From Octopus vulgaris (Eukaryota): a DNA stretch of 64,000 nucleotides. The notes under the pieces are model-generated. The model did not search any database. It was not told the DNA's origin and was given only the letters and a program-made list of their open reading frames with translations. The stretch is from assembly GCA_951406725.2 (NCBI GenBank), contig OX597816.1:73594001-73658000 (forward strand), read 5' to 3'. Below, piece after piece: positions 21,531 to 53,436 of this stretch (position 1 is the stretch's first letter; each line of letters starts with the position of its first letter). The translations under genes were made by a program, and so were the position numbers.

Positions 21531-21689
21531 TTTTTTTACCTTTTTTGTAATACTGGTTCCTTATATAACTGAGCTAAACTAACGTTTTCACAACTACTTG
21601 AGAACAAAGGAATTTTGTTCACATTAACTCGTCAAAACACCATTTTTACTATATTTATTTCCCCTTGCAGGGTTGTGAGGGTAGAATCC

Positions 21690-22950
21690 TTGGGCACCCT
21701 CTCCATGGTGTCTATCAGAAACAACAGTCATTACACTCTCCTGCTGGATTCCCTTGCCTGTTGGCTCCGCTTGAAGAATCCGTCTTGAAGAATCCGTCTT
21801 GCGATTCATTTCTGCAACATTCGAATCACATTTCACAGGGCGAAGAAGTAGTTGTTGAACCTGGAGAGACTGTCCGATCTCCGAGCTACTCACCCTGTCG
21901 TATAACGTTGCTACAGAGATCTTTCGGTGGAATCCTATTTTCGGTCGCTTGTATACTCGAGCGTACTCTTTCGGTCATTACCAAACATTCACGACCACAA
22001 GTGAGAATAGGCATGGAAACCCAATTGAAGAAAGCGAGTTTCACTTTTTTTTACCAACTTCTCTTCTGAGGATCGATTGCTGGCGCTGGGACACTACGTT
22101 GCCTTCACACACAATTCTAGCATCCAATCCAACATCGTCCTGCTTCCCATCACTAGGTAATAAGGCCTGGAAATATTCTTTTCTAATCTAGGAACATGGC
22201 CCGAAATTTTTGGAGAGGGGTCTAGACGATTAGATCGACCCCCAGCACGCAACTGGTACTTAATTTATCGACCCCGAAAGGATGAAAGTCAAAGCTAATC
22301 CTGGCTGAATTTGAACTCAGAACGTAAAGACATACGAAATACCTATTTCTTTACTACCCATAAGGGGCTAAACACAGAGGGGACAAATAAGGACAGACAA
22401 ACTGATTAAGTCGTTTGCATCGACACATACGCCACAGAAACCGGGAAATCAGGCCTATGAGCCTGGCTAGACTTGAAAAGGGCGTATAAATAAAAATAAA
22501 ATATTACTTGCAAGGCTCTGTTGTGTCTATTTATCCTTTCATAGAGCTGTTTATCTTTTTGAAGCCTGGGGAGACGTCTACGCTGATCCATATATTTTTT
22601 TCCTTTACTATCCACAAGGAGCTAAACACAGAGGGAACAAACAAGGACAGACAAACGGATTAAGTCGATTACATCGACCCCAGTGCGTAACTGGTACTTA
22701 ATTTATCGACCCCGAAAAGATGAAAGGCAAAGTCGACCTAGGCGGAATTTGAACTCAGAACGTAACGGCAGACGAAATACGGTTACGCATTTCGCCCGGC
22801 GTGGTAACGTTTCTGCCAGCTCGCCGCCTTACGGCCTAGAAATATTCAAACTTCTCTACTTGCGCCTGTGAAATTCCACTAACATAAGGTCACACTTGCT
22901 GTCTGTGCTTTTTATATGCTGGTTCAATTTCTATAGACTTTCCCGCCATG
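21690..22950 (-). mobile_element. RTE-clade LINE fragment split by a SINE block
   Basis: Minus peptides QVEKFEYF | SDGKQD..DARI..PILTCGRECLVMTERVRSSIQATE..SSEIGQSLQVQQLLL..RRILQAEPTG. Confidence 0.85.
22179..22832 (-). mobile_element. Composite/dimeric family B SINE with internal insert
   Basis: 15-bp TSD ggcctggaaatattc (22164-22178) / ggcctagaaatattc (22833-22847); core repeated twice; unrelated insert at ~22425-22600. Confidence 0.88.
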
Positions 22951-27015: not shown

Positions 27016-27425
27016 ATTAAAGTGAAAGTATCTGACATTACAATAGAGAGATGTTTTTGTTTCACTTTTAACACGTAATACTGAAATAGTGGAGAATATA
27101 TGATATTGTTGTGGGCTCGCCTTAGGCAAGGCGTTAGAAGATTTTTGCCCATGACACTACATGGACCCTAAGTAAGGCATGTGTAAAATTTGAATGAAAT
27201 TCGTTGTGTAGTTCTAAAGTTTTAGGGAATCATAGTGGGGAAGATATGATATTGCTGAGGGCTCGCCCTAGGCAAGAAGTTAAAAAATGTTTTGCCCATG
27301 AAACTCCCTGCACTCTAAGTAAGGCATGTGTAAAATTTGAATGAAATTGGTTATGTAGTTCTCAAGTTTTAGGGATTCACACAGACAGACAGACAGACAC
27401 ATATTCTCAGTTTTATATATATCAA
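27016..27425 (-). mobile_element. 5' part of a third Helitron copy, head-to-tail with 27426-29161
   Basis: Minus strand ..atgCTAG|ttgatatatataaaactgagaat..; contains two ~145-bp subrepeats. Confidence 0.78.
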
Positions 27426-29095
27426 CTAGCATTATGACCCGTCGTTGCCGGGTCAAAGTGCTAGTGCATGTATATATGTGTATATATATATGTGTACATA
27501 TTACATGTACATCTATATATATACATCTACACATAAAATATAAAATACAAAGTTATATCTTGATATCGCTAGTGATAACAATACTCAAAATATATAACAG
27601 ACTGGAATTGTAGGCCCGTCTCTTGTAAGTTCGATCAATTGTATCTTGTTCTCCCTCTTGTATAGAAGTGTGGCTACAATCCAGCCTACCTCTACGTCTG
27701 GGGGGGTCATTTTAAATTTTTATCCGGGACGTCTTACGTCCCAGATATAAAGGTAAAAATAAAATATTTCCACTTTGCAAGGTTCGAGTCGAGTACTCCC
27801 TTGCACGCTCCGTTGAGTCGAACCTTGCTTCTATTGTGGCGAATTTACCGCCTCTGGTTAGATACTTAATATTTTTCATAGTCGCACCAAGACACTTTTC
27901 GATGGTGCTTTCCTCCAGGTGTTCAAATCTTTTTTTTTTCTACATTATATACTTTATAGAAAATAGTCTTTTCTTTAATTTTATTTTTTATTTCGTTCGG
28001 TGGTGTTATCCTAGATTCACCGTCTTTGTCGGTGATCAATCCGAAATAGGTTTGTATTTCTTCCATTTTAATTTTAATGAGTTCGCGCCCGCCGACGGCT
28101 GCAGCGAAATTCATTTTGGGACTTTCTTCTATCGAAGCCATTTCAACAAAAGTGCTTCCGTGTAAACGGTGAAAATATTGTCAATTTCCCCAAACAGGGA
28201 CACAATTCAATTTTTAAACACTAACCAAAGGGGGAGGGTTACGGTTTACAATTATTTAACAAATGTAACACAACAACGTTTCCCTTTCGAGGAACCAACA
28301 AACGTGATAACAATAGTTAAACAGTAATAATAATAAAAACAAACCTTACGGTGAATCAAAAAGCAGTACGCAGTAAAAGCGGCTGTTCGAGAAAACAAAC
28401 ATTATATACAGCCAAACTTCATATAGATACTTAATGCTAGATAATTAGCAGATAATCTAATGTAAAAGCCGTGATAAAGGGTATGTGCACAGCTCCATCT
28501 GGACTATTCCATTTCTGCACATTAATTTTATTTTTAATTTATTCCCATTCATGTGAAACCCCTTATTCAAGTTCAAGTCATTGATGCAATTTTATACCAA
28601 TTGCTATTTTTACTTTTGATATGCTACGATTTAATTATTATATTATACTTTAGTTTGATTTTAATTATTACTTACTACATACAATTCAATTGTTATAATT
28701 ATCTCTAATTTTTATTATTAAAGTGAATGTATCTGACATAAAATAGAGAAATGTTTTTGTTTCACTTTTAACACGTAATACTGAAATAGTGGAGAAGATA
28801 TGATATTGCTATGGGCTTGCCCTAGGCAAGAAGTTGAACATTTTTTGCCCATGAAACTACATGGACCCTAAGTAAGGCAGGTGTAAAATTTGAATGAAAT
28901 TGGTTGTGTAGTTCTCAAGTTTTTCGTAATCGTAGTGGAGAAGATATGATATTGCTGTGGGTTCGCCCTAGGCAAAAAGTTAAAAAATAGTTTTTGCCGA
29001 TGACACTCCCCGGAACCTAAGTAAAGCATGTGTAAAATTTGAATGAAATTTGTTGTGTAGTTCTCAAGTTTTAGAGAAACAGACAGAGAGACAGA

Positions 29096-40454: not shown

Positions 40455-40864
40455 ATAACACAGCAACGAGAATTTGCATGATAATGGACGTAGCGTGTCC
40501 CGGTGACAACTGGATCAGTGAGATTGAAGAAAAAGCGAACAACTTTGACGAATTGAAGTGGAAAAATACGAAGTTTGTGAGCAATGAAGAGAGTAGACGT
40601 GAAACCGGTAGTAAATGGCGCACTCTGAAGTATCAGCACTCAACAACGAACAAGGCTCAAAGACATTGGTACAAATATTAAGATAGAACACCTACAAAAA
40701 TCAGCATTGCTCAGAACTGCAACAGTTCTCCGTAGGGTCTTGAAGCTTGATCAGTAAACAAGTGTCACCTTAGTCTACTGGCTGCGGGCAGCTGACACTT
40801 TCCATCATACGCAGCAAAATAAGCTGAGAGTTTTCATCAAATAATAATAATAATAATAATAATA
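40455..40864 (+). mobile_element. 3' end of an R4/Dong-type LINE (restriction-like endonuclease domain, 3'UTR, TAA tail)
   Basis: CMIMDVACPGDN..EEK..ELKW / VDVKPVVNGAL*SI..HLQKSALLRTATVLRRVLEA*; ends in (TAA)n. Confidence 0.85.
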
Positions 40865-40879
40865 AATCAATTATTCATA

Positions 40880-43702
40880 CACATACAAGATGTCACACCC
40901 ATAGTACTGTTGACACACTCAAACTCAGTCTGTGACACACTGATAGTACACATGAAACAACCGAAAATAGTAATATGTGTCACATATCGGCCACCAGACA
41001 CCCCTAGTCATGAAGGAGTGTTTGAAGATAGCCTCAGAAGAATAGAAGAAGTCCTGGACAAACTGGACCAGGGTAACACCATTCTACTGCTGGGAGATTT
41101 TAACCTTCCGAAAGTCAAATGGCCAGATGGCCATCTCCTCCCTGGAATGACATCACTTGAACAGAGACAGACAGAGTCCTTGTTGGCTCTCACACGCAAG
41201 TTTTTCATGGAGCAAGCAGTGCTTTGGCCAACAAGAGGTGAGAATGTCTTGGACCTCTGTTTCACAAGCAACCCGATGCTCATCCACAACATAATGGTAA
41301 CACCAACAATTCTCTCAGATCACAACTTAGTAGAGGTAATGATATATGGTATGAGAGAGTTAGTTGAGACGCAGCCATTAGAAAATACCACAGGCCTATC
41401 CAGTCTAAACTTCCATAAGGCAAACTGGAAGAAGATCAACGAAGAGATCCGAAAACATGACTGGAGTGACTTCATCACCACACAAGACACCAACACACAT
41501 TTCCAACATTTCATGACAACAATACAGAACATATGCCATAAGTTTGTCCCGGAGAAAAAAGCCAGCGGGCATAGGAACGTTATTCCCAGAGACAGGAAAA
41601 TACTTATGAGGCGAAGAGCTAAGCTCTCGAAGCAACTGAATGCACGGCAGAGAAACAATGAGGGACTCCACCTGAAACTTTTTGAAACGGAAACTGCACT
41701 CAAACTTTCCTATGAGAAGGAGAGGGCAGAGAGAGAAGCCAGGGCCATAGAGAATATTAAAACAAACCCTAAAGCCTTCTTTAAATTTGCGAAAGAAACC
41801 ACCTCGGTACACTGCAAGATTGGCCCACTCTTTGATAAAAAGGGCTCTCTAACTGAGGACCCCCAAGGGATAAGTGAAATACTAAAGGAACAGTATAAAA
41901 GTGTGTTCACATCCCCTCTGGGGCACATGCAAATCACAAACCCAGAAGTTTTCTTTGATGCCACAACACTCCAAAACCAAACAACAACCATCGACCACAT
42001 AGACATAACAGAGAGGGATGTAATATCTGCCATAGAAGAAATGAGAATAAACTCAGCTGCTGGACCAGATGGATTCCCAGCAGTCCTCCTAAAAACATGC
42101 AGGCATGCCCTAGCGGGACCACTGAAGAAGCTCTTCAGTGGTTCCTTGGCTAACGGTAAACTGCCCAGGGCGCTAAAAGAAGGCACCATATGCCCTATCC
42201 ACAAAGGAGGGAGTAGAGCAGAGGCCAAAAACTACAGGCCAGTCTCCCTGACGTCACACATAAGTAAGGTCATGGAACGAATCATCAGAAAAAAACTGAT
42301 CACGTTCCTCGAAGAAACTAACCGTCTCACTGACACACAGCATGGCTTTCGCCCAGGAAGAAGCTGCCTTACGCAGCTGTTACAACACTACGACTGGGTA
42401 CTGAAACAACTACTGGATCGCTCACAGGTGGATGTGGTATATCTCGACTTTGCGAAGGCCTTTGACAAAGTCGACCACGGAGTGATATGTCACAAATTAC
42501 TCAGACTCGGCATAACAGGAAAAGTAGGTGAGTGGATACATGACTTCCTGAAGGACAGAAGCCAGATGGTTGCAGCCAATGGAGCCCTCTCGGGAAAGAC
42601 ATCAATAGCAAGCGGGGTGCCACAGGGCACAGTCTTGAGACCCTTGCTGTTTTTGGTGGCGCTCTCTGACATGCCCTTGGTAGCACAAACAACATCCCTC
42701 ACTAGCTATGCTGATGACACAAAGGTAGCACAGGCAATCAAAAACCCAGCTGATGCTGACCTTTTACAACAAGATCTGGATGCCATATACAAATGGGCTG
42801 AAGACAACAACATGCAATTTAATGCTGGTAAATTTCAAGCCTTACAATATCAAGCTGTAAACACATATACATTACAACACAACTATACTGGTCCAGGAGG
42901 GATCGAAATCCCAGTATCGAAATCAATACGGGACCTGGGGATAGACATGAGTGACGATGCATCTTTTTCTTCACACATCGCGAAGGTGGCGACAATGTGC
43001 AGACGACTCACTGGCTGGATCCTGAGGACATTCCGGACAAGAGACTGCGAGACCATGTTGACACTATGGAGGACATTTGTCCTAAGCCGCCTGGACTACT
43101 GCTCCCAACTGTGGTCACCGCATAGTGTCAAACTAACCACAGAGCTTGAGACAATCCAAAGACATTTCACCAAGAGGATTTCCACCATGAAAGAAAAGAA
43201 CTATTGGGAGAGGCTTAGGGAACTCAATTTGTACTCCTTGGAACGAAGACGAGAGAGATATGCAGTGATATACATATGGAAAATCCTGGAGGGACTAGCA
43301 CCAAATTTTGGAATTGAGAGCTGTTCCAATCCCCGTACAGGACGTCACTGTGTGGTGCCAAAGGTCCCGTCTTCCACATCCAGGGTAAGGAGCAGATACT
43401 GTAATAGCCTGGGGTTCAGGGGCCCTCAGCTGTTCAACAAACTGCCAAGAAAACTAAGAGATCTACATGATGCGGATGTGGACATTTTCAAAAAACATAT
43501 AGACAAGCTGCTTTCCGGGATCCCAGATGAACCCACTGCAAGGTACGAAGGTAACCTAAGGGCAGCGGCTACAAACTCTCTCTTAGATCAGTGGCCAGCC
43601 ACGGCAAACTGGACTTGGAGAGGGTAGCAACAAGGGCGGTGCCCCAGCATGGCCTCAGCCGGATGACTGAAACAAGTAAAAGAGTAAAAGAGTAAAAGAG
43701 TA
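40880..43702 (+). mobile_element. 5'-truncated CR1-group LINE, young
   Basis: Uninterrupted ORF2 frame, very short 3'UTR, (GTAAAAGA)n terminal repeats. Confidence 0.96.
40910..43627 (+). CDS. LINE ORF2: partial APE endonuclease plus reverse transcriptase (no native start, 5'-truncated)
   Basis: YRPP, LLGDFN, LDL, SDH (APE); GPDG, NYRPVSLTS, QHGFRPGRSC, YLDFAKAFDKVDH, GVPQG, YADDTK (RT). Confidence 0.95.
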   Translation: MTHSNSVCDTLIVHMKQPKIVICVTYRPPDTPSHEGVFEDSLRRIEEVLDKLDQGNTILLLGDFNLPKVKWPDGHLLPGMTSLEQRQTESLLALTRKFFMEQAVLWPTRGENVLDLCFTSNPMLIHNIMVTPTILSDHNLVEVMIYGMRELVETQPLENTTGLSSLNFHKANWKKINEEIRKHDWSDFITTQDTNTHFQHFMTTIQNICHKFVPEKKASGHRNVIPRDRKILMRRRAKLSKQLNARQRNNEGLHLKLFETETALKLSYEKERAEREARAIENIKTNPKAFFKFAKETTSVHCKIGPLFDKKGSLTEDPQGISEILKEQYKSVFTSPLGHMQITNPEVFFDATTLQNQTTTIDHIDITERDVISAIEEMRINSAAGPDGFPAVLLKTCRHALAGPLKKLFSGSLANGKLPRALKEGTICPIHKGGSRAEAKNYRPVSLTSHISKVMERIIRKKLITFLEETNRLTDTQHGFRPGRSCLTQLLQHYDWVLKQLLDRSQVDVVYLDFAKAFDKVDHGVICHKLLRLGITGKVGEWIHDFLKDRSQMVAANGALSGKTSIASGVPQGTVLRPLLFLVALSDMPLVAQTTSLTSYADDTKVAQAIKNPADADLLQQDLDAIYKWAEDNNMQFNAGKFQALQYQAVNTYTLQHNYTGPGGIEIPVSKSIRDLGIDMSDDASFSSHIAKVATMCRRLTGWILRTFRTRDCETMLTLWRTFVLSRLDYCSQLWSPHSVKLTTELETIQRHFTKRISTMKEKNYWERLRELNLYSLERRRERYAVIYIWKILEGLAPNFGIESCSNPRTGRHCVVPKVPSSTSRVRSRYCNSLGFRGPQLFNKLPRKLRDLHDADVDIFKKHIDKLLSGIPDEPTARYEGNLRAAATNSLLDQWPATANWTWRG

Positions 43703-43904
43703 TACACACACACATATAACTTATTAAACAAAGTTCAATAAATTCAATCATATTTTAGGTAAATGGAGGAGATTAGATGTTAATGTGGATGATATTTTTT
43801 TATTTATGTAGCTATACGATCGTTTCATACAAAAAGCCAATAAATTCATTTTAAAAGTCTGAGCTGTCGAAAAGTACTCGTCAGTAGCGGAACATAAGAA
43901 AAAT

Positions 43905-44080
43905 GCTAAAAGGACGTTAAGATTATCTAAGTAAGGTGTTCTTACTCATTTTTGTAATGTGTTATTATTCTTTGGAATCATGTCTATTTAAAACACGACA
44001 TTTAAATAGACATGAATAATAACTCATTGCAAAAATGAGTAAGAACACAATACCTATGTAATGCTAACGTCTTTTTTAGC
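43905..44080. repeat. Diverged inverted repeat (centre of a palindromic MITE-like element)
   Basis: gttcttactcatttttgtaatg (~43938) vs cattgcaaaaatgagtaagaac (~44025); ctaaaaggacgtta vs taacgtcttttttag. Confidence 0.6.
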
Positions 44081-51764: not shown

Positions 51765-51819
<55 letters not shown>

Positions 51820-51855
51820 GAAAGAATGGAGTCGAACGAAGATGTTAACAAAATT

Positions 51856-51943
51856 CCTTTACTCTCGACATACGTTTCGAAGACAACATGGTTTCATTCC
51901 AAAGGAATAAAGGGTGCATTATGCAATCTTCTCATCAGGAAAG
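51856..51943 (-). ncRNA. Second hammerhead ribozyme copy on the opposite strand
   Basis: Minus strand ctttc-CTGATGA-gaaga..tcttc-GAAA-cgtatg-TC-gagag; stem I shortened by an 8-nt deletion. Confidence 0.75.
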
Positions 51944-52160
51944 CCTCTCTCGACAACAAGACAAACAAAAATTTCGATGACTGCCTACATGGTAAACAAA
52001 TAGGTTGTTCCTACCTATTATTCCTTTAACCCTTCTCTTCCTACTATCTATCTTTGACGTCAATTCTTCTAACGGTTTTTTTAAAAACACTCATTATCGT
52101 TTTGTTTACCATGTAGGCAGTCATCGAAATTTTTGTTTGTCTTGTTGTCGAGAGAGGCTC

Positions 52161-52253
52161 CCTTTCTTTCCTGATGAGAAGATTGCATAATGCACCCTTT
52201 ATTCCTTTAGAATGAAACCATGTTGTCTTCGAAACATATGTCGAGAGTAAAGG
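52161..52253 (+). ncRNA. Type I hammerhead ribozyme (predicted cleavage after GUC at 52242)
   Basis: Stem I cctttctttc / gagag-t-aaagg; CTGATGA 52171-52177; stem II gaagattgcat / atgttgtcttc; GAAA 52231-52234; palindromic catatg stem III; TC. Confidence 0.85.
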
Positions 52254-52637
52254 AATTTTGTTAACATCTTCGTTCGACTCCATTCTTTCATTTATTCATA
52301 TACAACACACAAATTTCTGCACGTGAACCCGGAGTTTCTACCCTTGGACAAGTCGCTTCAACCTTGTTTCTGACGTGAATTTGCTACCCAGGTTTCGGTT
52401 CAACGAATTTTCCATGCTGACGATAAACATAGGATAATTCATTCACCTATTTAAATATTCTTGAACCGAAACCTGGGTAGCAAATTCACGTCAGAAACAA
52501 GGTTGAGGCGACTTGTCCAAGGGTAGAAACTCCGGGTTCACGTGCAGAAATTTGTGTGTTGTATATGAATAAATGAAAGAATGGAGTCGAACGAAGATGT
52601 TAACAAAATTCCTTTACTCTCGACATATGTTTCGAAG

Positions 52638-52725
<88 letters not shown>

Positions 52726-52827
52726 TGTGTATGTATGTATGTATGTATGTATGTATGTATGTATGTATGTGTATGTATGTATACATATATATATATACAT
52801 ACATACATACATACATACATACATACA

Positions 52828-52861
<34 letters not shown>

Positions 52862-53436
52862 CATACATACAGGCTACCCTGTAATTCTAGATTATCACAG
52901 AGTTTCGCTTTTCAGTTGGACCTATTTCATTCGATTGATGTTCTTCTTCACAGATCACCGAAATATATCAAAATATTCTATCTGTTTCTCCGAACTTAAT
53001 TGTCTTTGAGCTTAGTAAAGATTCAATAGAATGCCAGAATCAACTACCTGATGTGTTCAGTCACGTTCTTTCACGTCTTTAACTTGAATACAAAATGTCG
53101 CTGAAATTGGCTTCAAATTTAAACCACCCGTGTTCGATAAAAGGCCACTCAAAGCGTGTTTTCTTCTGTTTAATTTAGAAATTATCAATGTTTCATGACT
53201 TTTCTACATTAATCATGAAAATTGAAACGTGTTGAGAGATGGCGACAATTTACTCAAATCTCGAAAACATAGCAAAGGAATTTAGAAGAATAAATAAGAA
53301 TAAATAATGACAGTGTTCTACAACTCAACTGTCCAGGATTCAATTCTAGCATCTCTCAGTTTCTCGAACTTCAGTTTCAGGCTGTTTTCCCGGTCACACA
53401 CTTATCAGCAAGGGTTTCTCTAAATAGCTTCAGATA

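Follow-up and report, generated by a model that had tools for sequence, protein, structure and literature searches.

A hammerhead-bearing end of a likely Penelope-like element with two inverted arms in a TA repeat of Octopus vulgaris

Introduction

Penelope-like elements (PLEs) account for 6.83% of one octopus assembly, with 190 families, according to the supplement of PMC13282606. Their insertions are described as 5′-truncated and as favouring microsatellites; a second truncated copy often precedes them at the 5′ side in inverted orientation (PMC8557442, PMC8969392). For the canonical EN+ elements (Penelope/Poseidon, Neptune, and Nematis), a pLTR, an adjacent inverted 5′-truncated copy, and an optional tail are reported (PMC8557442, PMC3846280, PMC8969392). 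Palindromes at the inverted junctions were read in PMC3846280 as self-priming, and tail-to-tail joints are presented there as expected from self-priming of the 3′ end and as rarer than head-to-head ones. In the account of PMC11167929, PLE protein in purified form cut AT-rich targets on both strands, extended the two strands, and started at internal sites, and the PLE hammerhead cleaves only with protein and is dispensable for insertion in vitro. Minimal hammerheads found on opposite strands 100–700 bp apart were read as truncated PLEs in PMC4209133, and a dimer model was put forward for metazoan PLE hammerheads (PMC4209133, PMC6765202). In a squid genome, 235 Rfam hammerhead matches were reported (PMC6962438).

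The locus of Octopus vulgaris described here resembles the canonical PLEs in its 5′ truncation, the head-to-head inverted copy with a small palindrome where the copies meet, the presence of two discrete 3′ ends, a likely AT-rich or microsatellite target, and a hammerhead near the 3′ end. It differs from them in an extra tail-to-tail arm, in the distance between the 3′ ends (156 nt; 30–40 nt in PLEs), and in that no ORF was seen. With the type I PLE hammerheads with minimal or palindromic stem III, as presented by Cervera and De la Pena 2014 (PMC4209133), it shares the intact core, the G10.1-C11.1 pair, a long stem II, a 2-bp stem III with a palindromic loop, the dimer fold, and the occurrence of opposite-strand pairs a few hundred bases apart. 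Unlike those presented there, it has a longer stem I (10 bp) and a stem II that spans 11 positions and carries a 31-nt loop with its own hairpin, and its A9 is followed by stem II without an extra base. Metazoan non-LTR retrozymes, as outlined in PMC7229834 and 10.64898/2026.07.22.740005, are likewise non-coding units of a few hundred bases with low GC and a type I hammerhead; in contrast to them, the locus has inverted pieces instead of a head-to-tail tandem, its family extends beyond the unit, and it is known here from contigs. Naiad PLEs, reported in Octopus spp. and favouring (TA)n, share the likely target and the inverted truncated copies, but are described as lacking canonical hammerheads, whereas the family studied here has one (PMC8557442).

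Results

Layout of the Locus

The window, i.e., the whole 64,000-nucleotide stretch of contig OX597816.1 that was analyzed, is microsatellite-rich and has a GC content of 36%. The locus occupies positions 51765–52869. Along the plus strand, it consists of (TA)n, an inverted arm (51815–52000), a forward copy (52005–52460), a second inverted arm (52461–52644), and again (TA)n. With the sequence divided into blocks a (52001–52100), b (52101–52219), c (52220–52294), d (52295–52403), and e (52404–52460), the order is (TA)n c′ b′ a b c d e d′ c′ (TA)n. The left (TA)n (51765–51814, no strand) is the likely insertion target, and a Tc1-like transposase remnant (PF13358, 50985–51764, plus strand) ends directly against it. 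The right (TA)n passes into (TATG)n/(CATA)n; these sequence repeats cover 52645–52869 (no strand). On this other side of the element lies a mariner remnant (PF01359, 53600–54480, plus strand), the closest listed relatives of which are 83–91% identical.

The left arm lies on the minus strand and is an inverted copy of 52101–52294, with its 3′ end at the TA repeat and a 5′ truncation at 52101. Over its 186 nt, it differs from the reverse complement of that segment by two substitutions and one 8-nt deletion, and it ends at the equivalent of 52294, 8 nt short of the listed family end at 52302. The right arm, also on the minus strand, is an inverted copy of 52220–52403 placed tail-to-tail with the central copy (1 mismatch in 184 positions). 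The outer ends of both arms abut (TA)n and are joined to it through 2–3 matching bases. A target-site duplication is unreadable within (TA)n, which flanks the locus on both sides and also the family ends. The alignment confirmed the repeat coordinates given in the initial annotation and the inverted arms flanking a forward copy. The family sequence starts at 52005, not at the first position of the 460-nt unit proposed there (52001–52460), and 52001–52004 (plus strand) is a 4-nt filler outside the family sequence, complementary to bases just inside the central copy. The central copy (plus strand) is a 5′-truncated family end and finishes at the family 3′ end, which in other copies passes at 52458 into (TA)n. 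The repeat analysis and self-comparison of the locus revealed no tandem (head-to-tail) unit, and self-comparison of the window revealed no further family copies; a 25-nt match of 88% at 21600–21624 (E 0.013) was set aside as chance or decay.

Hammerhead Motifs

The central copy contains a type I hammerhead with palindromic stem III (52161–52253, plus strand). Its cores are CUGAUGA (52171–52177) and GAAA (52231–52234), followed in type I order by the GUC cleavage triplet (52240–52242), and the cut is predicted after 52242. Stem I is 10 bp long and includes a bulged U and a G-U pair; stem II spans 11 positions, of which one is a U-U mismatch, and is capped by a loop of 31 nt; stem III has 2 bp around a palindrome. 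The hammerhead of the left arm (51861–51944, minus strand; core 51938–51932, GAAA 51878–51875, predicted cut after 51867) had been annotated as a second full copy. This description did not hold: stem I is only 6 bp long because of the 8-nt deletion of the left arm, and one change converts the perfect palindrome into a palindrome with two G-U pairs. The third, half hammerhead (52611–52644) exists as annotated, but its orientation is that of the minus strand; it comprises GAAA, stem III, the cut site, and the 3′ arm of stem I, without CUGAUGA.

The chance expectation was determined with a custom descriptor. A relaxed hammerhead was found in 1 of 5000 dinucleotide shuffles of the unit and a strict one (stem I at least 5, stem II at least 6) in none of 5000. 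Shuffled windows gave 0.03 relaxed matches per 64 kb (30 shuffles), compared with three in the real window, namely the hammerhead of the central copy, that of the left arm, and an unrelated one at 43884–43815. The search with the Rfam covariance models, proposed in the initial annotation as a check, identified no family in the window at the gathering score; up to E 10 it yielded 31 matches, all of a hairpin or TA-repeat kind, with no hammerhead model among them. The long stem II and its loop may account for this miss. An alternative type III hammerhead using an upstream GUC (52147–52149) was rejected, as it has a 3-bp stem III and an energy of −13.9 kcal/mol against −30.4 kcal/mol for the minimum fold; the variation of its C among family copies, given below, also disfavours it.

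Predicted Folding

All results in this section are equilibrium predictions. In the monomer, stem III forms with a probability of 0.01. Two copies of 52161–52253 cofolded without constraint give an active double hammerhead at −42.2 kcal/mol, which is a gain of 7.4 kcal/mol over two monomers. In this fold, stem III is formed between the two molecules with 8 bp, and the cores stay unpaired. The minus-strand copy of the left arm is predicted to cofold likewise into an active dimer with a stem I of 6 bp. The dimer-type hammerhead assumed by the initial annotation is thus borne out by the cofold prediction.

When 11 nt of upstream family sequence were added, the predicted probability of stems I and II fell to 0.00, because the purine-rich segment 52134–52157 is predicted to pair with the catalytic core and with the 5′ strands of both stem I and stem II. 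The resulting putative inhibitory hairpin (52134–52187, plus strand) has a minimum free energy of −30.4 kcal/mol, compared with −16.7 kcal/mol for the type I monomer. With the upstream tract included, the predicted minimum-energy fold of the dimer is no longer the active one. The listed family variants within 52134–52187, all of them transitions, look pair-compatible by eye. The 8-nt deletion of the left arm removes part of this hairpin. In a read-through RNA of the whole locus, the predicted probabilities of the hammerhead stems are 0.00 on both strands, and the ribozymes are buried in long double strands; masking of the ribozyme by dsRNA, suggested earlier, is in agreement with this prediction. 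The model calculations suggest that the family hammerhead would cleave only as a dimer, through the 8-bp palindromic stem III, and that it would need help in escaping the upstream hairpin. The hammerheads at the locus are most likely inert in read-through RNA of either direction, as judged from the same calculations.

The Repeat Family in Public Sequencing Runs

The unit was wholly or partly present in 20 of the 24 listed runs, which carry four organism labels. Four runs (X1, X3, X12, and X8; three organism labels) were aligned to 51960–52500 at 82% likeness in an error-prone setting, which gave 2999, 1750, 375, and 931 aligned contigs, respectively. In X1, 720 of the 2999 contigs were at least 99% identical to the locus, 939 were 95–99%, 949 were 90–95%, and 391 were below 90% identical. 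The summed depth in X1 was 83,000–504,000 over 52017–52415, compared with 23–48 for single junction contigs; summed depth is not copy number, and "thousands of copies" should be taken loosely, in the sense of very many.

Family sequence continues upstream of 52005 in all four runs (10, 10, 2, and 11 contigs at 52010), with about 24 nt of it visible, and matches the window from 52005 onward. It follows that the central copy is the 5′-truncated end of something longer and that 52001–52004 is filler. A self-contained 460-nt non-autonomous unit, as put forward in the initial annotation, is contradicted by this continuation and by inversions that differ from copy to copy. Among the 24 loose ends listed of 422, ends running into (TA)n were found behind 52458 (26 contigs in X3 and 13 in X8) and behind 52302 (10 contigs in X8); the two family 3′ ends seen in this set lie 156 nt apart. 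The family copies are hence 5′-truncated, with fixed 3′ ends at 52302 and 52458 and varied 5′ joints. Joints readable as head-to-head in other copies were 51999>52103, 51997>52083, 51993>52108, and 51993>52406, with one contig each; the joint 51993>52108 carries a 13-nt palindromic filler. Three further joints, readable as changes of strand only, were also represented by one contig each. All family joints are single contigs with a short side of 22–43 letters. Among the joints listed, none leads from the 3′ end back to the 5′ start, and there is one back-jump (52316>52256) with 27 other letters. The junctions 52000/52001 and 52460/52461 of the locus itself were unbridged among the 32 pieces listed of 6099.

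The depth was 3–6 fold higher over 52226–52301, from the cut-site region to the 52302 end, in X3, X12, and X8, and a loose end before 52165 joins a different upstream sequence to the same hammerhead. The elevated depth and the alternative upstream sequence point either to one or more sister families or to a large number of very short copies. No listed run is on record as RNA. X12, taken as RNA by guess, showed no depth for the rare alleles of the locus at 52209, 52323, and 52351, which is neutral as evidence; its contigs carry no strand, end, or level information. A>G differences were observed at five places in X12 and at 4–5 in the other runs, and no editing signal, as would bear on the ADAR substrate suggested in the initial annotation, is readable from them. 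Scans of metagenome and viral contigs with the family pattern gave no matches. A looser core pattern gave one metagenome and three prokaryote matches, which lacked stem III, the cut site, and flanking likeness and were rejected as chance.

Variation in the Hammerhead across Family Copies

The stems were examined with 40 listed of 61 variant places, unphased and without a tree, and an event inherited by many copies was counted once. All six listed variants in stems I and II keep pairing, including one that converts the U-U mismatch to G-U; the chance of six out of six is 1e-4 over all single changes and 0.027 if all are transitions. With respect to the stem covariation among genomic copies that the initial annotation had named as a test, the listed variants are compatible with conserved pairing. 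Variable positions number 0 of 14 in the core and 7 of 31 in loop II (Fisher p 0.08, 40 listed of 61 variants). The C at the cut site lies in a CpG and is absent from the listed variants, whereas the C of the look-alike upstream GUC is changed in 24–42% of the depth. The 21 unlisted variant rows could weaken the conservation of stems, core, and cut site.

Three further observations were made by eye. The single listed variant of stem III retains the dimer pairing through a G-U pair. The loose-end consensus of a diverged subfamily repairs the stem II mismatch as U-A. Together with the listed variants at 52190, 52218, and 52219, which are unphased, this consensus would lengthen stem II by two pairs.

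Shared Alleles, Junctions, and Age

At all six places in blocks c and d where the X1 majority differs, the right arm carries the allele of the central copy. Two of these six alleles make up 0.3–0.4% of the X1 depth, and two more make up 0.9% and 2.1% and are commoner in other runs. The shared rare alleles indicate that the right arm and its neighbour go back to the same template, whereas a family member picked at random would not be expected to carry them. The central copy has a rare allele at 52209, where the left arm agrees with the family.

The head-to-head junction shows a 4-nt hairpin filler and a 3-nt microhomology. The filler 52001–52004 closes a 5-bp hairpin with 52012–52016, which is no better than in shuffled sequences (z −1.1). 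At the tail-to-tail junction, there is an imperfect match of 7–8 nt between the 3′ end at 52460 and 52405–52411, such as a fold-back would require, although structure prediction gives a different minimum-energy fold for this end. We consider that the head-to-head and the tail-to-tail joints probably arose in a single event by self-priming.

Over 370 positions, three differences separate the arms from the central copy. At the octopus rate of 0.0036 changes per site per million years given in PMC13282606, this corresponds to about 1 million years (0.2–3.3), on the assumption that the rate applies to this host and that the arms were not homogenised. Of the youth claimed in the initial annotation, the recent insertion is upheld by this value; the family is neither young nor uniform, as 391 of the 2999 X1 contigs are below 90% identity.

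Coding Content and Family Membership

The 61-residue open frame at 52005–52187 had no relative among 20 candidates in longer proteins. Compared with 1.84 billion representative proteins, it again had none; this search covers the truncated part, not the upstream element. The upstream loose-end consensuses differ from the frame by two silent and two conservative changes (by eye; too weak to serve as evidence), and it is disrupted by insertions that family members carry at 52082. Three traits of PLEs are present, namely a type I hammerhead with minimal or palindromic stem III, 5′-truncated copies with fixed 3′ ends, and an adjacent inverted 5′-truncated head-to-head copy, the last of these at the locus and at four joints in other copies. 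The retrozyme trait of a head-to-tail tandem with hammerheads is absent at the locus. The family likely belongs to the PLEs, which is not proven. The earlier claim of a ribozyme-bearing retroelement of Penelope-like kind is supported by the hammerhead type, the (TA)n 3′ ends, and the head-to-head joints. In the literature searched, we found no description of the hammerhead of this family; repeat libraries (Dfam, Repbase, and curated octopus libraries) lay outside the scope of the search, and the family may well be catalogued already.

Other Features of the Window

A second, unrelated minimal type I hammerhead is located at 43805–44076 on the minus strand, with the core at 43884–43878, a palindromic stem III, and a predicted cut after 43815. 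It sits just downstream of a head-to-head inverted junction with arms at 43908–43970 and 44014–44076 (84%), and an inner perfect hairpin of 15 bp lies at 43978–44015. Cofold prediction gave no active dimer fold for it unaided. It is probably another truncated PLE-type end, and an older one. At 40823–43627 (plus strand), there is an uninterrupted frame of 934 residues with endonuclease (PF14529) and reverse transcriptase (PF00078) domains, possibly a recent LINE copy. A GC-richer stretch at 21671–22190 follows a splice-acceptor-like site and contains a 14-nt tandem (21766–21801); it may be an exon or a processed copy, and the two plus-strand frames scanned had no Pfam match. Related two-copy tandems of 147–149 nt at 27086–27379 and 28787–29072 flank about 1.4 kb.

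Discussion

We interpret the locus as three pieces, alternating in orientation, of the 3′ end with the hammerhead of a family that is very abundant and likely of PLE type, probably placed into (TA)n in one insertion and predicted to be inert; we give this reading a probability of roughly 0.8. A GIY-YIG endonuclease would have nicked the TA repeat, and a reverse transcriptase would have copied the element end from its 3′ side and stopped early. At the head-to-head junction, priming may have taken place on both strands of the target, or the cDNA may have folded back. For the tail-to-tail junction, the newly made 3′ end (52460) would have folded back on 52405–52411 and been extended by 184 nt, with itself or the same template being copied. 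The left arm and the central copy would be the standard PLE insertion unit, and the right arm an added fold-back. Several observations count against this interpretation. The visible family sequence does not reach a reverse transcriptase or GIY-YIG frame, and the 3′ ends are 156 nt apart, compared with the tail of 30–40 nt published for PLEs in PMC8557442. The left arm ends 8 nt short of 52302, and the hammerhead has no Rfam match; its stem II with the 31-nt loop exceeds the 7–8 bp stems of the minimal PLE hammerheads in PMC4209133. The family joints come from single contigs with short sides of 22–43 letters at 82% likeness. Finally, the fold-back at 52460 is not the minimum-energy fold and uses an imperfect microhomology of 7–8 nt.

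Two other readings share parts of this scheme. The arms alone would be explained differently if a plain insertion had come first and host repair had added them later, by snap-back synthesis and microhomology joining at breaks in the TA repeat. The 2–3 matching bases at the outer (TA)n joins and the hairpin and microhomology at the inner junctions would fit such a course, and the shared rare alleles are compatible with copying in place. The head-to-head joints, however, recur in other family copies and in the second, unrelated hammerhead element of the window, they are a trait of PLE insertion in the accounts of PMC8557442 and PMC3846280, and separate repair events at both ends are less economical; we regard later addition by host repair as less likely than formation by the enzyme of the element. 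A different source element is the subject of the reading on which the initial annotation had settled, in which the master is a short non-autonomous PLE derivative or a non-LTR retrozyme mobilised in trans and the locus is a scrambled monomer, with the same insertion mechanism as in our preferred one. Such a source would agree with the lack of a coding link for the frame 52005–52187, with the derivation of retrozymes from PLE ends stated in 10.64898/2026.07.22.740005, and with the 3–6 fold depth peak at 52226–52301 (X3, X12, and X8), which would reflect abundant short copies or related families. It is unlikely in view of the continuation of the family upstream of 52005 in four of four runs, the lack of a tandem at the locus, and the lack of a joint from the 3′ end to the 5′ start among the joints listed; PMC7229834 defines retrozymes by tandem repeats and ascribes to them mostly canonical type I hammerheads.

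The piece order can also be read as one turn of a closed self-complementary (dumbbell) circle, copied by rolling circle, with the 75-nt segment 52220–52294 repeated at both ends. This geometry is not independent evidence, since any double fold-back with overlapping arms yields the same order. The residual depth of the rare allele at 52351 (about 320 in X1 and about 350 in X3) leaves room for a few sister copies; the other copies, however, have other junctions, and the two of the locus are unbridged among the pieces listed. A rolling-circle origin is accordingly very unlikely, and equally improbable is its more specific form, in which a PLE reverse transcriptase self-primed at both ends made the dumbbell, the hammerheads on both strands were held shut by the double strands of the circle and by the upstream hairpin, and the circle spread as its own small subfamily. 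If true, it would be a rod-like, viroid-shaped retro-replicon in an animal genome. The same unbridged junctions at 52000/52001 and 52460/52461, together with the trouble that inverted PLE structures cause assemblers as reported in PMC8557442, speak for arms that arose as a fold-back artefact of the assembly or the library. In a chimera, the arms would repeat the central sequence, but they differ from it by three substitutions and an 8-nt deletion, with the family allele at 52209 in the left arm; similar junctions were also found in independent runs. We consider an artefact highly improbable.

The preferred reading makes the locus most likely one of very many dead PLE-type ends, in which the ribozyme and the inversion are both of kinds already published. 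The head-to-head and tail-to-tail joints in one insertion, tied together by rare alleles, are the trace expected from self-priming of the 3′ end, the arrangement presented as the rarer one in PMC3846280. With its many copies, the family is a source of natural covariation in the long stem II, and it has a predicted off-switch upstream; both may provide a handle on the slowness of PLE hammerheads without protein described in PMC11167929.
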